Positions 15,168 through 63,278 of a DNA stretch of 64,000 nt are shown piece by piece. The DNA comes from Octopus vulgaris (Eukaryota). The stretch lies in assembly GCA_951406725.2 (NCBI GenBank), contig OX597837.1, forward strand, positions 13,392,001 to 13,456,000, read 5' to 3'. Position 1 is the first letter of the stretch; every line of letters begins with the position of its first letter. The translations under genes and the position numbers were made by a program. The notes under the pieces are model-generated. The model worked only from the letters and a program-made list of their open reading frames with translations, made no database searches and had not been told where the DNA came from.

Positions 15168-15617
15168 GTATGTATTAGTCGGAATATACTTTGAAATGTA
15201 CCATGCACTGATGAAGTTTATGAAATAATTACTTAATGAATTTTACATCCTTAAACATCTCTGTGTTTCCATCTTCTGTCCAGGTTTTCTGTTTCTAGCA
15301 CTGGAGTAAGTATTTTTATTTAACTGGATGTAATTTTAAATGACAATACTTTATTCTAACAAGGACAAACGGATTAAGTCGATTATATCGACCCCAGTGC
15401 ATAACTGGTACTTTAACAGTGTACTTTATCATTGTGTCTAGTTTCTCGCTAAGCAGTCCAAAGTTTCACTAGAGATGCACTACAAGATTTTTGGTAAGCT
15501 TTGACCTCTGCATAAATGCTAGCTCAATGTTTGACAATTTCTAACCAAATAATATAAAGTATTGTCTGTATTACTTAAGGAAATCTTTGACGTTCTCTCT
15601 TTTCTGTTTTCCCTCAG

Positions 15618-17992
15618 GTTTTAAATCTTACGAAGATAATGCTGTGAAAGCCTTAAAACCAGCCATGACTGATATGGAGTTTCACAACTACTTAGACGTT
15701 GATGGACATCTCATCAGACCCCAGGAACTCCGACTGAGTATTTACCAAGGTGGTATTGAACCGTCACTGCGTAAAGTGGTCTGGCGGCATCTTCTAAATA
15801 TTTTCCCTGATAACATGTCGGGGAAGGAGCGTTACGACTACTTGAAACGAAAGGAGCAGGAGTACTACAAGGTGCGGAAGCAGTGGAAGGCACATTTAGA
15901 GACGGACACTGCTTCCGACGAAATCAAGAACATCATTTCAGTGGTCAAGAAGGATGTGTTAAGAACAGACCGGACTTATAAGTTTTATGCTGGGTCAGAC
16001 GATAGCAACAATATTCTGTCATTAATTCACATCTTAGTAACCTATGCAGTCACACATCCTGATATCTCCTACTGTCAAGGCATGAGTGATTTAGCCTCAC
16101 CTTTACTAGTCGTTCAGAAAGACGAGTCTCACGCCTATCTCTGCTTTTGTGGCTTGATGAAACATATGAAGATCAACTTTCATCCAAGCGGTCAAGCAAT
16201 GAAGATCAAACTACAGCATCTGTCACTGCTTCTCCAACTCTACGATCCTGTATTCTACACTTACCTCTGTGAAAGCAGCCCAAACCACCTTTTCTGCTTC
16301 CGATGGCTTCTTCTGGAACTGAAGCGTGAATTTCCTTTGGACGATGCTCTTTATATGCTGGAGGTGATGTGGAGTACGCTGCCTCCAGACCCGCCTGCTG
16401 TTGAACTCGAACTGACCGACCCGCATTATTCCCCCAGTTTAATTTCCTCTTCACCTTCATCCCCAACACTAAATTTCCCCCAGAGCATGTACGCCAATTT
16501 CCTTGCACTTCGCCTAAAAGACGCTGCCAAAGCGCGAAACGTAGCCCATTCGAATAGTTACGATTCCGACAAGATGACCAATGCGGAGTCAAACGGGAGA
16601 CTGAACGGAGTGAAGAAATCTTCGAATTGCATTAACATCCAAATTAATCAGCATGATGTCTCACCTATGGAAGAAAGTTACTCCGGTGGAGATTTCCCAG
16701 CCATGGAGGATGCTACAGCCAAGATGATGCAGGCTCGTTCTTCAAGCATCGATAAGTCGTTGTGCAGTTCCCCTCCCCCTCAGTTGCTCAGTGGTAGTGA
16801 TGAGGATGTGTTTGCATTTGAAAGTTCTTCTTGCTCATCAGGTAAAAGCAAGTTAAGTGTCGGAAGCATCAATTCGTGTCCCAAAACAGACTCGGAAGAG
16901 ACGAGAGACAACGGTTCTTACGAAGACACTCAGTTTCATTTATCTCTTGAGAACGTAGAGAAATTTCAAACCACGGAACCATCCAGTTCATTTCATTCCC
17001 CAGACTCTGAAGTTCCAAAGACCAAAACAAAAGTAAAGCACAAACCGGCTCAGCTGTCTCTGACCGTGTCGTCCAAACCGATGGTCACTCTGACTTCTCC
17101 AAACTGTGATAAAAGTCACACTGACGATGCTGACTATGTTGACGCCACTGATAGTGAGAACGTGACCCCGACATCCTACGGCCAACAATGCCCACAGTTT
17201 AGGTCAGCTGTTAAGACCCCGTCTCCAGGCAACCTGCCTCCCCTCCCCCTATCACTTCCACTAACACTCCCACCACCCCCACTGCCGCTACCATCACAAA
17301 TGAAAAAAGTGCACACTAACGACTCCAGTCTATCTACTTCTTCTTCGTCTGTGGCATCGTCTCAGATGGTAACCCCAAGCGAGTCCCCCGCCAGTGGCGA
17401 CCCCTCCCATCTGCCTACGGTCCCTTGTTCCTTGCAATCATCGCAACATCCGGACATACCTCCACTTCCGTTGCCGCCTTCCAATATTTCAACATCGTCA
17501 TCTTCACTGTCATCTCCTCCTTACCCTCCCCCGGCAGACTCTGCCTCGACCCATTCCTCCTTTGATGCCAGCTCCCCAACCCAGCTCACTGTAAATGGTT
17601 CCACTGGTGTGACCACCACCACCATGTCTAATCCTGCTTCTTCGCCAACCAACATCACCAACACCATCACTACTGCTAATACTACTACTACTCCTGTAAA
17701 TGATAATGCCACACTGGACCGGTCGCAGAAACTGCCTCCACCACAGGACTTTGGCGCCGGAAACCCATTCCTCATGTTCCTTTGCCTCACTATCCTCCTG
17801 CAACACCGAGATTTAATTATTAACAAGAAACTGGAATGTGAAGAGATAGATATGTATTTCCAGAGATTAACTCGCAAACAAAATGTTCACAAAGTCCTTC
17901 ACCAAGCCAGGACTCTCTACACGGAGTACCTTCGCAATCAGCAGAAACTCGATGAAGAATTCAAATCCATTGAAGACAGTTTAAGTATCTGA
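15618..17992 (+). CDS. TBC1D25: TBC1D25 last coding exon: Rab-GAP TBC domain with a long Ser/Pro/Thr-rich insert
   Basis: ccctcag|GTTTTAAA acceptor inside the 801-aa ORF. TBC motifs GGIEPSLRKVVW, KKDVLRTDR (Arg finger), YCQGMSDL (Gln finger), FRWLLLELKREF and C-terminal FGAGNPFLMFLCL. Stop TGA at 17990-17992. Confidence 0.96.
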
Positions 17993-27079: not shown

Positions 27080-28012
27080 TCAGGATTGGTTGGACGATAA
27101 GGTATAAAGTGGGAACGTCTCTCCAGAAGAAGCTACTAAACTGACTGGATAGGGCGAAGCCCCTGTGGTGGCACAAGTAGAAATACTTTCCATTGGGGTC
27201 AACTCTATGCCTGATTCACATTTACTGGGTGTCATATAAGTTCTTGTAACCTTACTTGAAATGTGCCCTTGAGATGATCGTCTATGGGGTTCCGAGTTGG
27301 AACTGTCGTCCGTGTAACCTTTGCCACTCTGATTGATATTGGGTTTGCATTGTTTGATGTCCTCTTGCGAGAGATTGTAGTCTGTGACATCATCGTCTAA
27401 GATCTCAATTGGTTCAGTCTTGATGCCGCATTCAGAAGGAATGCCACTGACCGAACTGCTACCTTGTAGTGACATGGAAGAGGCTTGGGAAGTGGAAGGA
27501 AACTGATTTTGGTGAGAGGTTAAATAATTATGCTGCTCGTTAAGAGACTGAAGCCTCTCGTCGAGCAGCGAATTATGAACATCTTCCAGGTGAGAATGCG
27601 ACAATCCGACGTTCTGTTCTTGGTTGTCAAAAGTTACATCAGCAGGATTGGAATCGTCGCTCAATGTCAACACCACTGTTTGACGATTACTCTGTGACTT
27701 GGGAAGAGAATCTCGGTGACGGGGCGTCAACGTTGACGGGGAGCTGGTCATTTGCTTGTGTTCGTTTAGACTGGCAGCAAACTCTCGGCAGTGTTTCTGA
27801 ATTTTATCGACTTTTAAGAGATTAGATATTCGTTCGACATCCTTGTACAGATGTTCGTTAAGGTTAAGGACACCGTCGTAGAGAAAGCTGACAAAGATTT
27901 TCAGTCCGTCTTCGCTAATCCCTGGTGGAAGATTCACTTCCAAGTCAGCACCATCGGTAATATTTTTTTCCATCAAGTGAGGACTGGCAGCAAACAGAAC
28001 CAAACGATGTAA
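27080..28012 (-). CDS. BTB/POZ protein, constant exon C3 (rest of BTB domain plus disordered Ser/Gln-rich tail, stop)
   Basis: ttcttttccag|TTA CAT CGT TTG GTT = LHRLVLFAASPHL...GLKIFVSFLYDGVLNL...VERISNLLKVDKIQKHC (BTB hallmarks HRxVLxAxS, FLYxG, LxV..C). Phase 0 acceptor. No zinc fingers before the TGA. Confidence 0.9.
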   Translation of the reverse strand, partial: LHRLVLFAASPHLMEKNITDGADLEVNLPPGISEDGLKIFVSFLYDGVLNLNEHLYKDVERISNLLKVDKIQKHCREFAASLNEHKQMTSSPSTLTPRHRDSLPKSQSNRQTVVLTLSDDSNPADVTFDNQEQNVGLSHSHLEDVHNSLLDERLQSLNEQHNYLTSHQNQFPSTSQASSMSLQGSSSVSGIPSECGIKTEPIEILDDDVTDYNLSQEDIKQCKPNINQSGKGYTDDSSNSEPHRRSSQGHISSKVTRTYMTPSKCESGIELTPMESISTCATTGASPYPVSLVASSGETFPLYTLSSNQS

Positions 28013-30239: not shown

Positions 30240-30385
30240 CTTACAGACAAATCTTTTTCCTGATTTATTCTTATCTTGGAATTTTGGATTGTGTGCACTG
30301 GTTCTGGTTCGTAAGTCTCAACTTCAGGCTGACCAATAATAGCGCCAGTGGCTGCTGCTACAGCGGACTGAACCTCCATTGCCTC
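30240..30385 (-). CDS. BTB/POZ protein, constant exon C1 (shared phase-0 acceptor; internal ATG at 30379)
   Basis: ttgtttaatttacag|GAG GCA ATG GAG...TCT GTA AG|gtaaga. 146 nt open frame EAMEVQSAVAAATGAIIGQPEVETYEPEPVHTIQNSKIRINQEKDLSV. Its phase-2 end joins C2 (AG+C=Ser). Not in the supplied ORF track. Confidence 0.82.
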
Positions 30386-39363: not shown

Positions 39364-40671
39364 CTGTCGGTTTAGAGCAATTTCACTCAAATTAGGCAGG
39401 TGGGGGAAAGTATTGTCAGTATCGGTCTGTACCATTGACACACGCAGGCCAGACGGGTGTGGGCTGTAATTCATAGAACCCGCATTCGTATCGTGGGTCG
39501 CCTGCATTTCGTGGGACGACAGGGTGTTTAGGCCAGATATTGAACTGATACCGGGCAAAGCGAGCGACTGAGATGGTGTCGTCAGAGAGCTGCTGGTACC
39601 TTGTTGGGGGTCGAACTGAAATGCATCGAACACCTGAAAGAGGACGAACTTGGCTGTTGCACGGATGCAGTGGTTTGTGTAGACCCGGGAGAGTTTGGCC
39701 GTAAGCGCTATCCTTTTCATCATCGTGGACAAAGCTTCTTTTCCGAGTGGAGATGCATTATACCAGATGGAGTCCTGGAAGGATGTGGTCCGAGGATGCT
39801 GGAACAGAGCTAACTCGTGCGGGTTTCGCTTCCGCAGGTAGCGCTCGAACGTGGCCACTGGGCACACGGCATTACCTGTAGCATACATTCTCGCACTGCG
39901 ACTGGAGTCTGGGGACAACGGGGAGCTGTTCGATTCGATGCTACATCCGTTGGTGTACTGAGACAATGATTTCCGTTTGTAGACGTATTTTCGACCATAT
40001 TCGTCGGTACCAAAGCCAAAATGGTGAGGGGTGAGATAGCGCTGGTTCTCCTGTCCCCGACGAAAGAAATAAAATGTAATTTCAAACCAGACCTTGTTGA
40101 GGAGGCCTTCTGGTGTGTTGGGGTTAAACACCTGACTGTGGGAATAGAGAGTAGCCATGTCAGCCTGGCTGATCGGCTCTTTGTGTTCGATCGACCCTTT
40201 GCCAGCTTCTTTCAGTCGCTTCAAAGCCACTTTAAACGACATGTTCGATTTACGGAATGCCGGGTCGTTGACGATGTTCACAGTTTTCAGGTAACGGTTT
40301 AGTCCATGGCGAAGTGCAACCAACGAGGAAAAACTATAGAACTGGCCGCCTTGTGTACGGACGTTGATGTAGAAATCAGAGAGCAGTTCATCCAACTCAC
40401 TCTTGGCCATATCTTCAATGGCAGTATTGATACCACGGCTATGGCAGAAGTCACGGAATATTTTCGCGCTGTACTTGGTGGCTTCTTTGGTTTTTTTGCT
40501 GTCATACTGATGGGGTTCTTTCGATGGTGGAGGCATGACCAATAGAGGGACATCTTCGTGAATAACTCCAGCCGATTGTAAAGGAATGTTAGTGCTAGCA
40601 AGCAGAGAGTTTGCAGTAGAAGTGCACGGCGGAGGAGTCGGCGACGACGAGTCTAGTGGATTGGAAGCCAT
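39364..40671 (-). CDS. Variable first exon V1: Crypton-derived tyrosine-recombinase-fold (DUF3504-like) domain
   Basis: ATG at 40671 (MASNPLDSS), 436 codons to AAC CGA CAG|gtaagt. Motifs FYINVRTQGGQFYSFSSLVALRHGLNRYL, TPEGLLNKVWF, FRRGQENQR, CPVATFERYL, WYNASPLGK, YTNHCIRAT are typical of Crypton/KCTD1/ZMYM/QRICH1 DUF3504. Confidence 0.85.
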
Positions 40672-40699
40672 TAGTAACCTTCTTCCGCACGGCACTACG

Positions 40700-41050
40700 T
40701 TCTAGTAGCGTGACGTCACGGCAACATAGATGCGTAGTGAGCACTACGAGAAGACATAGTGCCCCAACACTATAGAAGCCAAATAAATATTACAGATTTA
40801 TATAAAAGTTGCACGGATTTTTTCCCTCCTTGTAAATTTTTCGCACGGCTATATATTTCCGGGAATACTCTGCTTATACGTTGTTGAAAGAAAGCAAAGA
40901 AGCAAATTAATAGTCGATAGCACCTCTCCCACTATCTCTCTCAGTCTATCATACACATCACTATATCCTTATATGTTGCTGACCGCTTCACTCACAAAAG
41001 AAAAAAAATATATAAGATTAGTCCGCCGTGACGATAGAATGGCGGCCCAA
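40700..41050 (-). promoter_or_regulatory. Putative promoter of V1
   Basis: Perfect 12-bp palindrome CGTGACGTCACG (CRE core TGACGTCA) at 40709-40720, ~40 nt upstream of the ATG. YY1-like AATGGCGG at 41038-41045. Locally CpG-rich. No polypyrimidine acceptor before the ORF. Confidence 0.5.
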
Positions 41051-47217: not shown

Positions 47218-47607
47218 TTTTGCTTGACGCCAGTTCCTGATATTGCGACTTACATGCGAAGAGGGAGGCATGAGAGCCATTTCCTTGTCATCAAGCTTTT
47301 CACGAATGGTCGCAATTAACGAACGGGAAGATTCCTGGGAAGCGGCTGCTTGGGCCTTCAGGTCCGCCAAAGTTTTGCGAACTTTGGGCACGGAAGCACA
47401 CGAACTATGAAGATGTTCACCAACGCGCTTCACTATGGTATAATCTTCGTCGTGTGTCATGGTGTGGACTCGGGCTTTACAGGACCTAATTTCGCATTTC
47501 CAGTAAGTCTTAGATCCATCGGAATTTTTTTTCTGTGTTTCATATATGTAATTCATGTTATCCACAAGTTTCTTCCCTCCGCGGATGCTGTTAAATACGT
47601 GAGGCAT
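47218..47607 (-). CDS. Variable first exon V2: FLYWCH zinc finger (N-terminus of a MULE-type transposase)
   Basis: gcaccATG at 47607, 130 codons to CAA GCA AAA|gtaagt. SIRGGKKLVDNMNYIY...TYWKCEIRSCKARVHT...VGEHLH is a FLYWCH pattern, followed by the helical linker (LMPPSSHVSRNIRNWR) seen in FLYWCH-MULE transposases. No DDE domain. Confidence 0.85.
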
Positions 47608-54013: not shown

Positions 54014-54574
54014 CTTCCCATACTTGATATCAGCGATAGTCGCGATTTGTTGACTGGCATCCCAGTTAATTCCAGGTAGGTAGGACGAAGATTCATAGGC
54101 GGAGATTAAGTTAGCGGCAACAACTTCTGTCTTGATGGCATGTTCCAACTGTAGAGACGTGCTGCTGGTAAGGGCACTTTGCTGGTCATCTTGGAATTTT
54201 AACGGAAGCCCGTCAATGTTCGGGGCTTTCAGTAAACGCCTCGCGGGTTTCGGTAATCTCTTCAAAGAACTCGCCGTCGACCTGTTACGTATGGAAGGCC
54301 GATCGTTGCTGTGATTGTGGTTCTCCCTAAACGATATTAGCTCTTGTTTGTTCGACATGACAGCGCTAGAGAGACAGCCCAGTGTTTTACACTTCCAGTA
54401 AATTCTGTCTTTGCGTTTATAGTTAAGACGAAAGAGATAGCCATTTAAGGCCAAGAGTTGTCCGCCTCTCGTCGTCACGACCAGTTCGTACTCCGGCTGG
54501 CGCGGTTTGAATGTCTGCCTTTTTTTATTTAGCTTATAATCGTGGTTAACATTGAGAAACGAATCGTTCGCCAT
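54014..54574 (-). CDS. Variable first exon V3: FLYWCH zinc finger plus linker
   Basis: attATGG at 54574, 187 codons to TAT GGG AAG|gtatgt. TTRGGQLLALNGYLFRLNYKRKDRIYWKCKTLGCLSSAV...ENHNH is a FLYWCH pattern. The ORF becomes intron-like immediately after the donor. Confidence 0.85.
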
Positions 54575-56290: not shown

Positions 56291-57805
56291 TAGGTTGAAA
56301 TCCCTTATCCGAAATTCCTAAAGATTTCGGAATATTTTTATACTTGCATCCATGAAATAGGACACCTTGGGGGATGGGACCCAAGTCTAAACACAATATC
56401 CACTTACATCTTATATTATATATATATTTTTTTATCCTTTTGCTTGTTTCAGTCATATGACTGCAACCAGGACTTTTTTTTTCAAACTCTAGTACTTATT
56501 CTATTGCTCTCCTTTGCCGAATTGCTAGGTTACGAGGATGTAAACACACCAGCACCGGTTGTCAAGCGGTGGTAGGGGACAAATACAAACACAATGACGT
56601 GCACACACACACATATATATATATACACACACACACAATGAGCCTCTTTCAGTTTCCGTCTACCAAGTCCTCTCACAAGGCTTTGGTCGGCCCGAAGCTA
56701 TAGTAGAAGGTACTAGCCAAAGGTACCGCGCAGTGGGACTGAACCCGGAACCATGTGGTTGGGAAGTAGGCTTCTTACCACACCCCCACGCTTAACACTA
56801 GAACAGTAAGATATCCGTTTCGATGTCATGTTTTGATTAAAAGATTACACTACATGTACGCCATTTGTATTTCATTCTTTGCTCTACGGATATTGGGTTT
56901 AATGTAAGATATAAACATTTTTAAAAAGCCAAAGCATTGAACATGATTACAGGTAAATAAAATGAAAACTGAAAAAGTCAACATAGCATTTTAAAAAAAA
57001 GCAATGTACAAATAACGATGTTAGTCATGTTATACTTATACACGGATGTGAAATTCGGGTCTAAAATAAGAATCACATTTTGGGCTTACTGTTTTTAAAG
57101 ATTTAATGCCGTGCCTTTTCCTAAATTTTTGCAACCAGTCTGCAGAATATTCACAGCTACCCCCAATTTTCAGTTTGTTATGATAGATTTTTGCCTGTTT
57201 CGTGATCAGCAATGCATTAAGCGGGATGTGTTTACTCTGGCACTGACGAATCCATTCCATTAGAACACGATCGTGATTTTCAGTTTTCGCTCTATGTAAT
57301 TTTTTCCTGTACTTCATCAAGCTTTGATCATCGCTTTCTTCATAGAACTGTCTTTTCAGGTCGTAGACAGTCGTTGTTCCGACACCAAACTCCTCCGCCA
57401 GTTGCTTCACACTTACACCGCTCTCAAGTTTTTTCAACAACTTAACTTTCTGCATTATAGTTAGACATAGATGTTTTCTCTTTTCACGATTACCCATGTG
57501 GGTATTTCCAGGCCTTTTCGACATTTCCGACATCTTCTTCTCGTCACAGGGCACAAAACAGGCGGCAATCACAAGTAACGAGCGAAGGTGTCACTCTGAT
57601 GGCTGCTAACAAACTTCCAACTGAACTTTGGACGATAAAACTGCACCCAGGGTAGGTGAGGTCACATACGATAACGGCACACAACATCTGCACTTGGTGG
57701 AACTTTCCTAGCACTTTGTAGAATATTCTATTTGAGGTATGTCATGTTAGAATCCACAAAAAAACTTTCGGATTTGGGAATTTCGGATAAAGGATTTTCA
57801 GCATG
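56291..57805 (-). mobile_element. Internally deleted Tigger/pogo (Tigger4/Zombi, Jerky-like) DNA transposon carrying V4; SINE nested at ~56430-56790
   Basis: TA|TAGGTTGAAATCCCTTATCCGAAATTCC at 56291 and its inverse GGAATTTCGGATAAAGGATTTTCAGCATG|TA ending at 57805. Internal GGGGATGGGACCCAAGTCTAAACAC resembles Tigger4-type subterminal sequence (from memory). DDE region absent. Confidence 0.75.
57090..57533 (-). CDS. Variable first exon V4: CENP-B N-terminal HTH (psq-type) + HTH_Tnp_Tc5, Jerky/TIGD-like
   Basis: ATG at 57533 (second ATG 57524), 148 codons to TTA AAA ACA|gtaagc. KRKHLCLTIMQKVKLLKKLESGVSVKQLAEEFGVGTTTVYDLK...SADWLQKFRKRHGIK. The donor falls right after the second HTH. Confidence 0.8.
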
Positions 57806-59354
57806 TATAGTCGATTAAATTGACCCCAGTAGTATGTAGTAGAATTTCAACGTCCACGATGCTTTCGCCGTGGGAGGTAGACAGTAATACCTTTATTTCT
57901 TGGATACTACAATAAATCAAACGAAATGTGTTGACATACAAGTTGTCTTGGTCTGTGATATAAATTACATTGTTAGAGAAGGGCTTCTAGAACTGAGTGC
58001 CCATAGTAACATCAACCATACAGTTACTAAGGCAGGTAAAGATGTGTGGAGATGTGAACTGTAATATATTCCACATCTCTATATTTCAGCCGCCTAAAAT
58101 CTTCAACGTCACTTTCCAAGTTTTTCTCACGAACACAACTTCGGCAAGTTTTCACTTATTATAGAAGAAATACAAGTAAAGTTTGCTATTTTATTTGAAG
58201 GTATTTTTTTAAAATGCAGTAAAAACTATCATCGCATCTCTTTCGATTAACTCCTCATTAACTCTCAGTCCAAGACAAAATAAAAGCTTGAAGGGTAACA
58301 CAGGAGATTTTACTCTGAAATATATTTTAGCCGAGATGTGTGCCTTGCCGATGGAAGTTTGGGGCGAATAACGAACCATGTTAGAAAGAGAACATCTCAA
58401 ATTTTTATCATTCCCCCCCCCCCTTTTTTACTAATTAAGACTATGAGTTTTATTTCACCCCAATTATCATAGCATAACTGAAGTGAAATACCTTTCTTAC
58501 AATGCTATAACCATGCAGCATTATAATTCGAATTATGTACATAACAATTTTATAACAGTCCCCAAAACTACCACAATATTAAATAATACCCTTTATCAAT
58601 ACTTTAAATTTCAGCAGGCAACCATCCACCCTCTGCCATATAGACAATTTTTTTGTGTGTATTGTTACAATACCCGCGTTCAACAGTGTTAAATAAAGTT
58701 AGTTTTACATTCGTTTAGCGTTGCAATGTCAGAATTAGATTAAAATCTATGTGCAATGGTGTTAAATATATATATAAAAAAAGACAATTACAGTTGTTTG
58801 TTATTGTGATGCCCCTTACCAGATTAGAACCCACGATCAATGATGTTAAAGTTAAGATGCATCCGTTTATATTTACAGTACCCCTATATATATACACACA
58901 CAATGGGCTTCTTTCAGTTTCCGTCTACCAAGTCCTCTCACAAGGCTTTGGTCGGCCCGAAGCTATAGTATAAGGTACTAGCCAAAGGTACCGCGCAGTG
59001 GGATTGAACCCGGAACCATGTGGTTGGGAAGTAGGCTTCTTACCACACCCCCACGCTTAACATTAGAACAGTAAGATATCCGTTTCGATGTCATGTTTTG
59101 ATTAAAAGATAACACTACATGTACGCCATTTGTATTTCATTCTTTGCTCTACGGATATTGGGTTTAATGTAAGATATAAACATTTTTAAAAAGCCAAAGC
59201 ATTGAACATGATTACAGGTAAATAAAATGAAAACTGAAAAAGTCAACATAGCATTTTAAAAAAAAGCAATGTACAAATAACGATGTTAGTCATGTTATAC
59301 TTATACACGGATGTGAAATTCGGGTCTAAAATAAGAATCACATTTTGGGCTTAC

Positions 59355-59813
59355 TGTTTTCAAAGATTTAATGCCGTGCCTTTTCCTAAATTTTTGCAAC
59401 CAGCCTGCAGAATATTCACAGCTACCCCTAATTTTCAGTTTGTTATGATAGATTTTTGCCTGTTTCGTGATCAGCAATGCATTAAGCGGGATGTGTTTAC
59501 TCTGGCACTGACGAATCCATTCCATTAGAACACGATCGTGATCTTCATTTTTCGTTCTATGTAATTTTTTCCTGTACTTCATCAAGCTTTGGTCATCGCT
59601 TTCTTCATAGAACTTCAACAGTTTGTCCTTTTGTTTCTTCAGGTCGTAGACAGTCGTTGTTCCCACACCAAACTCCTCGGTCAATTGCTTCACACTTACA
59701 CCGCTCTCAAGTTTTTTCAACAACTTAACTTTCTGCGTTATAGTTAGACATAGATGTTTTCTCTTTTTCCTTTCACGATTACCCATGTGGGTATTTCCAG
59801 GCCTTTTCGGCAT
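59355..59813 (-). CDS. Variable first exon V5: paralogue of V4 (CENP-B/Jerky-like double HTH)
   Basis: gaaATG at 59813, 153 codons to TTG AAA ACA|gtaagc. Same domain as V4, with intact KKQKDKLLKFY and SAGWLQKFRKRHGIK. Confidence 0.82.
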
Positions 59814-62693: not shown

Positions 62694-63278
62694 ATTTTCC
62701 ATCACCAAGTCCTCACTTTTCAATATCCTCAACATAAACAAATCCGACTGCGACTGGTCATTCTTGTCGTTCCATCGACCCGTCGCCGGATTTGCTGACT
62801 TCACTGGACTCTTGTTGAATCTGGCCTTACTACAATGGTTCTTGTAATTTCCATGTCTGCGACTACTGCACCTCGGACACAGAGAAATATAGATTTTTAT
62901 GGCTTCGGCCGTCACATTGGCATATAATTGACGGGTGATGTTCTGCATTCTGTTGATACCAGCATGGGAATGAGTTAAGTGAACAGCTTTCAGGGCTCGG
63001 AATAAATCCTCGTCGGCGATGTAAGGACGAACGGATTCCGAGTCTCTTCGTCTTCTTCTCTTAATTAGTTTGGTTCCTTGATCATTGGTGACCAAATCAA
63101 AACGGCGAGTTACATTGTATTCTTCCCCAGTCCAAGCGGTTTTCTTGTCCCAAGCCCCTTTCAAAATGAGCAGGTATTTGTTGTATTGTTCCTTTGTCAT
63201 GCTAACTACATTTTTACCTATTTTCTCATTTTTCTTCACTCTCCACGTTCTCAAGAATTCTTCTTCGGACGTCAACAT
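62694..63278 (-). CDS. Variable first exon V6: Ginger/KRBA2/SCAND3-like N-terminal region with integrase H2C2 zinc-binding motif
   Basis: atcATG at 63278, 195 codons to ATG GAA AAT|gtaagt. YIADEDLFRALKAVHLTHSHAGINRMQNITRQLYANVTAEAIKIYISLCPRC has the H-x4-H...C-x2-C pattern of KRBA2-like integrases. The rve catalytic core is absent. Confidence 0.8.

Follow-up and report, generated by a model that had tools for sequence, protein, structure and literature searches.

Sequence evidence for an old Crypton domestication in a BTB gene of octopuses and cuttlefish

Comparison of genome and protein sequences indicates that Octopus vulgaris carries a real, old and unannotated Crypton domestication, common to octopuses and cuttlefish, in which a DUF3504 exon stands as the upstream first coding exon of a host BTB gene. 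The encoded head is likely a catalytically dead tyrosine recombinase, and the gene appears to be one of several in a BTB family that took in Crypton domains more than once. The gene lies on the minus strand of the 64,000-nucleotide stretch analysed here, called the window (contig OX597837.1, positions 13,392,001 to 13,456,000), and positions below are those of the window.

A spliced DUF3504-BTB gene

The features of the gene are as follows.

40672..40740, minus strand: conserved leader 5' of the ATG, with an in-frame stop and a TGACGTCA palindrome
39364..40671, minus strand: DUF3504 head exon, 436 codons from the ATG to a phase-0 donor, equal to residues 1-436 of XP_029650369.1
39616..40506, minus strand: tyrosine-recombinase fold core, residues 56-352, with core-binding and catalytic-type domains
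40059-40057, 39672-39670 and 39663-39661, minus strand: kept catalytic codons of Arg205, His334 and Arg337
39403..39615, minus strand: replaced tail, residues 353-423, of low complexity, where intact Cryptons have Gly-His...Tyr
39364..39402, minus strand: first half of a 26-residue junction peptide (residues 424-449) that spans the splice junction
30240..30385, minus strand: first constant exon, with a phase-0 acceptor and its own Met as third codon
28883..29033, minus strand: second constant exon, with an N-terminal extension and the start of the long-form BTB; placed by eye
27080..28012, minus strand: third constant exon, with the BTB remainder, a disordered tail, a conserved C-terminal motif and the stop

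The frame of the head exon is open from the ATG at 40671 to a CAG/GTAAGT donor at 39364, in phase 0, and residues 179-322 match Pfam DUF3504 (E 5e-11, above the cut-off). Joined to the three BTB exons, it yields an 845-aa product identical to the Octopus record XP_029650369.1, which agrees letter for letter with a join of 39364 to 30385. Named records of O. bimaculoides, Argonauta and Sepia carry the same fusion at full length, and so do unnamed proteins of 813-862 aa whose contigs measure 4.5 kb or less, one such protein being found on 36 contigs. Since the octopus gene spans 13.6 kb, and since the sequence of record P0015 (221-kb contig) continues into the intron at the junction residue of the spliced records, we infer that the short contigs are spliced transcripts. 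Five other records (P0008 and P0011-P0014) also read into the intron, and the entry of P0015 at the equivalent residue shows that the intron position is common to the records. These protein records, among which gene-model records are not independent of the genome, give indirect evidence that the DUF3504 exon is expressed and spliced into the host BTB gene. The spliced fusion put forward in the original prediction is thus borne out by Octopus, Argonauta, Sepia and short-contig sequences.

The 26-residue junction peptide was invariant in 6/6 aligned orthologues, in a region picked after the sequences had been seen. Translation of the leader matched, by eye, most residues of the N-terminal extension in Sepia record P0009, and its TGACGTCA palindrome is presumably CRE-like. 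An AF2 model of the full-length protein, built on a 13-row alignment, was uninformative (mean pLDDT 28.7). The last 25 residues of the protein (27083-27160, minus strand) are identical at 23-25 of 25 positions across orthologues, and a similar Pro-aromatic-Pro-Val-x-Leu motif ends paralogous BTB proteins. Convergent with the BTB gene is a RabGAP-TBC gene, with a long last exon at 15545-17992 on the plus strand.

We used region-by-region protein identity as a proxy for selection. Against two Sepia-like records, the recombinase core was identical at 269-278 of 297 positions (91-94%) and the BTB at 129-134 of 136, while the replaced tail matched at 38-42 of 71 and the C-terminal disordered region at 105-114 of 200; across Sepia-like records the tail ranged over 38-44 of 71 (54-62%). 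By protein identity the gene therefore has conserved orthologues across species, as a domesticated gene does. The DNA of the head exon matched the genome once, in a search that skips common words, and the next protein match was 42% identical; the many near-identical copies that would mark a recent Crypton were not seen. With a single copy and 91-94% core identity across coleoids, we reject a recent insertion. A search for terminal repeats around the head exon returned nothing beyond AT microsatellites; animal Cryptons carry no terminal repeats in any case. The genome also holds a recent multi-copy Crypton-like family of about 2.4 kb (contigs C4, C12, C5 and C18; four copies, 95-97% identical), in which some copies keep their frames open and the Gly-His...Tyr tail intact. 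Identity between this family and the head is only about 30%.

The recombinase head and its likeness to KCTD1

Both motifs through which the recombinase fold had been predicted to be intact are present, RRGQENQR at residues 204-211 and YTNHCIRAT, with its HxxR, at 331-339, and the AF2 model of the head has pLDDT mostly above 90 from 61 to 340, with dips in loops. The confident part of the model stops at a terminal helix, residues 333-352, and pLDDT falls below 50 from residue 365. Past Arg337, the next His (387) and the sole Tyr (402) both lie inside the low-confidence tail. The loss of Gly-His...Tyr to low-complexity sequence that had been proposed is therefore upheld, but this sequence does not follow directly on HxxR, since an invariant hydrophobic helix, residues 333-352, stands between them.

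The best fold match of the head model was Cre (Z 15.0, rmsd 3.5, 257 residues aligned), tied with QRICH1 in the Zincore-DNA entry (Z 14.4, rmsd 17.0 Å, 249 aligned, 16% identity), and Xer and integrase structures came next. QRICH1, from the Zincore-ZFP91-DNA entry, was also the best PDB sequence match of the head profile (E 1e-4). Among 62 relatives with an intact Gly-His...Tyr tail, 67 columns were conserved, and the head keeps 57 of them. Arg205, His334 and Arg337 fall in columns 97-100% conserved in that set, where 100% columns are partly fixed by selection of tail-intact sequences; the tail Gly, His and Tyr are among the columns lost. The Lys column (97% in the 62 relatives) corresponds to about Tyr239, in a loop where the alignment is uncertain, suggesting that the catalytic Lys has probably been lost too. 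A recombinase fold with an incomplete tetrad is characteristic of domesticated DUF3504 domains, and from sequence and model we consider the head likely to be a catalytically dead Crypton-type tyrosine recombinase that would not cut DNA. Passages of Kojima and Jurka (PMC3212892) describe all human DUF3504 genes as being without the Tyr and the second Arg; the octopus head, in contrast, keeps the second Arg.

The closest solved structural and profile relative, the dead recombinase fold of the QRICH1/ZMYM2-4/WOC proteins (Zincore, PDB 9HJT), is like the octopus head in its loss of activity. It nevertheless represents a separate, older and intron-containing domestication, in which DUF3504 is C-terminal, there is no BTB, and the His and the second Arg are lost.

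A closer parallel in layout is the long isoform of vertebrate KCTD1 (KCTD1b), which, like the octopus gene, has a single-exon Crypton DUF3504 as the upstream first exon of a host BTB gene; in both, the catalytic Tyr is lost and conservation is high. In similarity search the head was 43-45% identical to KCTD1 records (P0043, 45%; P0076, 43%). The long isoform and the KCTD1 pentamer are described in 10.1101/2024.06.14.599007. The two genes differ in that KCTD1 has a T1-type BTB (PF02214) and its own C-terminal domain, and forms pentamers, whereas the octopus BTB is long-form (PF00651) and the C-terminal domain is absent. In addition, KCTD1 is without the second Arg; Arg-His-Arg is complete in the octopus head, from which the Lys appears to be missing.

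Pfam assigned the octopus BTB to PF00651 rather than PF02214 and found only DUF3504 and BTB in the protein, with no C-terminal C2H2 array and no BACK or Kelch repeats. In the PDB, the BTB matched gigaxonin (top), BACH1, BCL6, and ZBTB and KLHL proteins, all in keeping with the ZBTB/Kelch-type BTB that had been predicted; KCTD proteins were absent from the 50 distinct sequences matched to E 0.1, and the BTB gave no alignment with two KCTD1 records (E 1.1). PF20871, the C-terminal domain of KCTD1/15, is likewise absent from the fusion protein by Pfam. The genome has a single copy of it, on contig C1, accompanied by BTB exons of its own; a scan of 100 kb there, in which the part upstream of the first KCTD BTB exon came to just about 9 kb, turned up no DUF3504. 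Because its BTB is long-form and the real KCTD1/15 lies on another contig, the octopus gene is not KCTD1, and the BTB does not group with KCTD1/15 as orthology would have it. The BTB type, the lack of PF20871 and the separate KCTD1/15 on contig C1 together argue that the fusion arose independently of KCTD1b.

The DUF3504 side is less decisive. For our trees, 7 of 160 proteins without a long domain match were dropped, and a careful version used 51 of 156 rows, picked by hand. In the careful tree the window group fell in a 13-row branch with tail-intact relatives (support 88/92, not starred) and KCTD1 was unplaced, so that the two were not sisters when the tree was unconstrained. Constraining the window head and KCTD1 to one clade cost 4.3 log units (AU p 0.34). 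The case for an independent fusion consequently rests on the BTB side, since the DUF3504 tree does not separate the head from that of KCTD1, and one Crypton lineage may have been captured twice, by the octopus gene and by KCTD1. Of the independent fusion originally proposed, the unlikeness of the BTB to that of KCTD1 holds, but a joint DUF3504 lineage is not rejected. The BTB tree has only 91 columns, too few for a firm root of the family; among 10 sequences compared, a scallop BTB was the best non-cephalopod match (96.8 bits).

A BTB family with many heads

Seven further single-copy DUF3504 exons were found in the genome (G000), on contigs C2 (1), C3 (3), C15 (2) and C23 (1). All 8 of the 8 single-copy exons examined, the window exon included, sit 4-58 kb upstream of a same-strand long-form BTB exon, making 8 exons at 5 octopus loci, and the BTB exons downstream of the other seven have a phase-0 acceptor before a common His-Lys/Arg motif. 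The genome gave 17 protein matches to the head, of which 8 were checked for a downstream BTB and 4 belong to one repeated family. Protein records contain the fusion for C15 (XP_029646297.1) and for an orthologue of C23 (927 aa, on 103 short contigs). Grouping all eight heads in one clade was rejected (202 log units, AU p 3.6e-6), and at least four origins are likely because starred branches place three head groups among different tail-intact relatives. It is therefore likely that this octopus BTB family took in Crypton domains several separate times.

Four of the eight heads keep Arg-His-Arg and one keeps the Tyr. The last is the C23 head (L056:3582-4793, plus strand; C23, 26.79 Mb), which has the Arg, His-x-x-Arg and a full-length tail with Tyr, and is thus the only one of the eight with the whole tetrad; its second His is replaced by Gln, and its Lys column is replaced as well. 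A head of this type is conserved in a Sepia-clustered BTB fusion of 926 aa.

Heads of other kinds stand beside the DUF3504 exons. The C3 locus (L042-L054, 149.11-149.24 Mb, minus strand) has THAP, CENP-B, HTH, FLYWCH, zinc-finger and DUF3504 exons; its heads, among them five THAP, CENP-B, HTH and three DUF3504, occupy 60 kb ahead of the first of three tandem BTB genes. At the C15 locus (L030-L037, 71.43-71.50 Mb, plus strand), two FLYWCH, one CENP-B and two DUF3504 exons lie upstream of one BTB. The closest paralogue of the window BTB, on C11, is 63-69% identical and carries two different heads on short contigs (P0218 and P0219). At the C11 locus itself (L014, 20.86 Mb) there is one multi-exon head, the second head being found in the short-contig records, and no DUF3504 was found in 60 kb of it. 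A copy of this paralogue on C10 (L015, 34.40 Mb) has one stop in its BTB exon.

Upstream of the constant exons in the window there are five more exons that run from an ATG to a phase-0 donor, which we list as candidate heads.

47218..47607, minus strand: candidate FLYWCH head, ATG to phase-0 GT
54014..54574, minus strand: candidate FLYWCH head, ATG to phase-0 GT; no fused protein found
57090..57533, minus strand: candidate CENP-B/Tc5 HTH head, a recent duplicate of 59355..59813
59355..59813, minus strand: candidate CENP-B/Tc5 HTH head
62694..63278, minus strand: candidate head with weak integrase-H2C2 similarity (E 0.0014, below the cut-off)

The CENP-B/Tc5 HTH pair (57090-59813) is identical at 999 of 1038 aligned bases, as in a recent tandem duplicate, unlike the old DUF3504 head. 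The integrase-H2C2 candidate, if joined to the BTB, would echo the integrase-BTB order of ZBTB11. In protein records of 464-2000 aa, only the DUF3504 head occurs on the window BTB (4/4 clusters); a weak search found no fused forms with a FLYWCH head, and by eye no further heads stood out in the 80 kb upstream of the window. Cassette behaviour at the window locus is accordingly putative, since the records show only the DUF3504 head on its BTB.

In Drosophila, mod(mdg4) and lola each have one BTB common to many alternative DNA-binding exons, an arrangement resembling that of the octopus sister loci. The order is reversed, in that the variable heads of octopus come first and the BTB after, and the window locus documents a DUF3504 head only.

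DUF3504 is also joined to a BTB outside cephalopods. Among the 39 longer of 150 representatives scanned with Pfam, all database models, and with profile matches to DUF3504 counted as well, a Branchiostoma protein (P0097) has DUF3504 first and then a long-form BTB (Pfam E 0.0096, search E 6e-43), and an Owenia protein (P0073) has the long-form BTB first and DUF3504 after it, as does the scallop Mizuhopecten (P0082; hhalign E 9e-42). The scallop record is labelled 'isoform X4', which hints at a lola-like locus with variable C-termini. Other DUF3504 partners among the 39 were KRAB (three proteins: P0089, P0108 and P0110), SCAN (P0164), GTF2I (P0145) and ATF7IP; P0110 and P0164 keep an intact Gly-His...Tyr tail. 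Since records from amphioxus, an annelid and a scallop show the pairing too, the resemblance to KCTD1 is real in domain order and becomes one case of recurrent capture. The convergence originally proposed thus holds for domain order but is not special to octopus and vertebrates, as it recurs at five octopus loci and in other animals.

We found no literature report of a cephalopod DUF3504-BTB gene in main texts, although the supplements of PMC3212892 and PMC10027918 may list mollusc relatives. In PMC3212892, Kojima and Jurka place Crypton-derived animal genes in four phylogenetic clusters, none of them cephalopod-specific, and sections of PMC13465315 state that most animal genomes, those of molluscs included, hold several DUF3504 genes, many of them inactive. 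PMC10027918 has already described octopus THAP-BTB and CENPB-BTB proteins, and it treats the BTB itself as transposon-derived; Crypton or DUF3504 appears 0 times in its main text. An integrase-BTB precedent, ZBTB11, is given in part of PMC12062965. Host-transposase fusions formed by exon capture, in which a mobile-element domain is spliced to a host effector domain, are described in 10.1101/2020.05.07.082677. The octopus gene has the same exon-capture layout, with a tyrosine recombinase as donor.

Possible function and significance

We favour, as reasonably probable on sequence and predicted structure, a dimeric transcription or chromatin regulator that grips DNA with its dead recombinase head. 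Before the split of octopods from cuttlefish, a Crypton would have inserted on the 5' side of a host BTB gene and come to serve as that gene's main first coding exon. Thereafter its tail would have decayed, whereas the need to grip DNA would have preserved the two-domain clamp and the Arg-His-Arg phosphate pocket. Long-form BTBs dimerise, and the BTB may pair two clamps, and a dimer so formed would bind two half-sites or loop the DNA. Cofactors would be recruited by the disordered C-terminus, which has conserved IKTEP, taken here to be a SUMO-type motif, and acidic hydrophobic motifs, presumably SIM-like. The gene would be one member of an octopus BTB family with Crypton, THAP, CENP-B, FLYWCH and HTH heads.

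Much less probable, but the strongest of the alternatives, is a Zincore-like co-regulator, in which the dead head would bind DNA only together with a zinc-finger factor and lock it there, with the BTB adding dimerisation. QRICH1-SEPHS1 reportedly locks a zinc-finger factor on DNA, and C2H2 genes are expanded in octopus, which would suit such a role, as would the rank of QRICH1 as best PDB sequence match (E 1e-4) and tied best fold match. The example of QRICH1 shows, by analogy, that a dead DUF3504 can act as a partner of other factors rather than as a sequence reader. However, identity to QRICH1 is only 16%, at an rmsd of 17 Å, and, according to PMC3212892, QRICH1 is a separate domestication that lost the His and second Arg, both kept in the octopus head.

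We think it improbable that the protein is a scaffold or Cul3-type adaptor without a DNA role, its DUF3504 serving as a substrate or partner module. Gigaxonin, the top PDB match of the BTB, is a Kelch-type adaptor, and protein binding is named as a possible DUF3504 role in passages of Kojima and Jurka (PMC3212892), but the protein has no BACK or Kelch domain, the sibling heads are of DNA-binding types (THAP, CENP-B, HTH and FLYWCH), and the head keeps Arg-His-Arg. More improbable still is a host repressor of Cryptons, whose dead head would bind or poison active elements. The recent intact-tail family in the genome offers a target for it; yet that family is distant from the head in the tree as well as in identity, and a sequence nearly invariant across coleoids suits a fixed host target more than an arms race.

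Flp assembles its active site in trans, and BTB pairing of the tyrosine-less head with the C23 head could conceivably give a joint active site, and with it a host-encoded enzyme, made from domesticated Cryptons, that nicks or rearranges DNA. The C23 head keeps Arg-His-Arg and the tail Tyr in octopus and in the Sepia-clustered record, but the catalytic Lys appears to be missing from both heads and Gln replaces the second His in C23, so we give this idea very little credence. A KCTD1 orthologue, or a recent selfish insertion spliced by chance, is the least credible reading: DUF3504 sisterhood with KCTD1 is unrejected and one Sepia record is auto-labelled KCTD1_15, but the BTB type, the location of PF20871, the single copy and the conservation largely refute both.

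If the head is indeed a dead recombinase fold that grips DNA, the graded catalytic decay of the eight octopus heads would offer a natural series on what such a fold does on DNA, a question that bears on human KCTD1b and KIAA1958 as well. The octopus genes would add tyrosine recombinases to the DDE transposases known from exon capture, and they suggest that the KCTD1 layout reflects a general affinity of the recombinase fold for effector domains rather than a one-off event. The main value of the finding lies, more than in the parallel with KCTD1, in the repeated capture of Cryptons by one BTB family: beyond the four clusters of Kojima and Jurka, a single octopus family seems to hold four or more further captures, whose age makes them common to cuttlefish.
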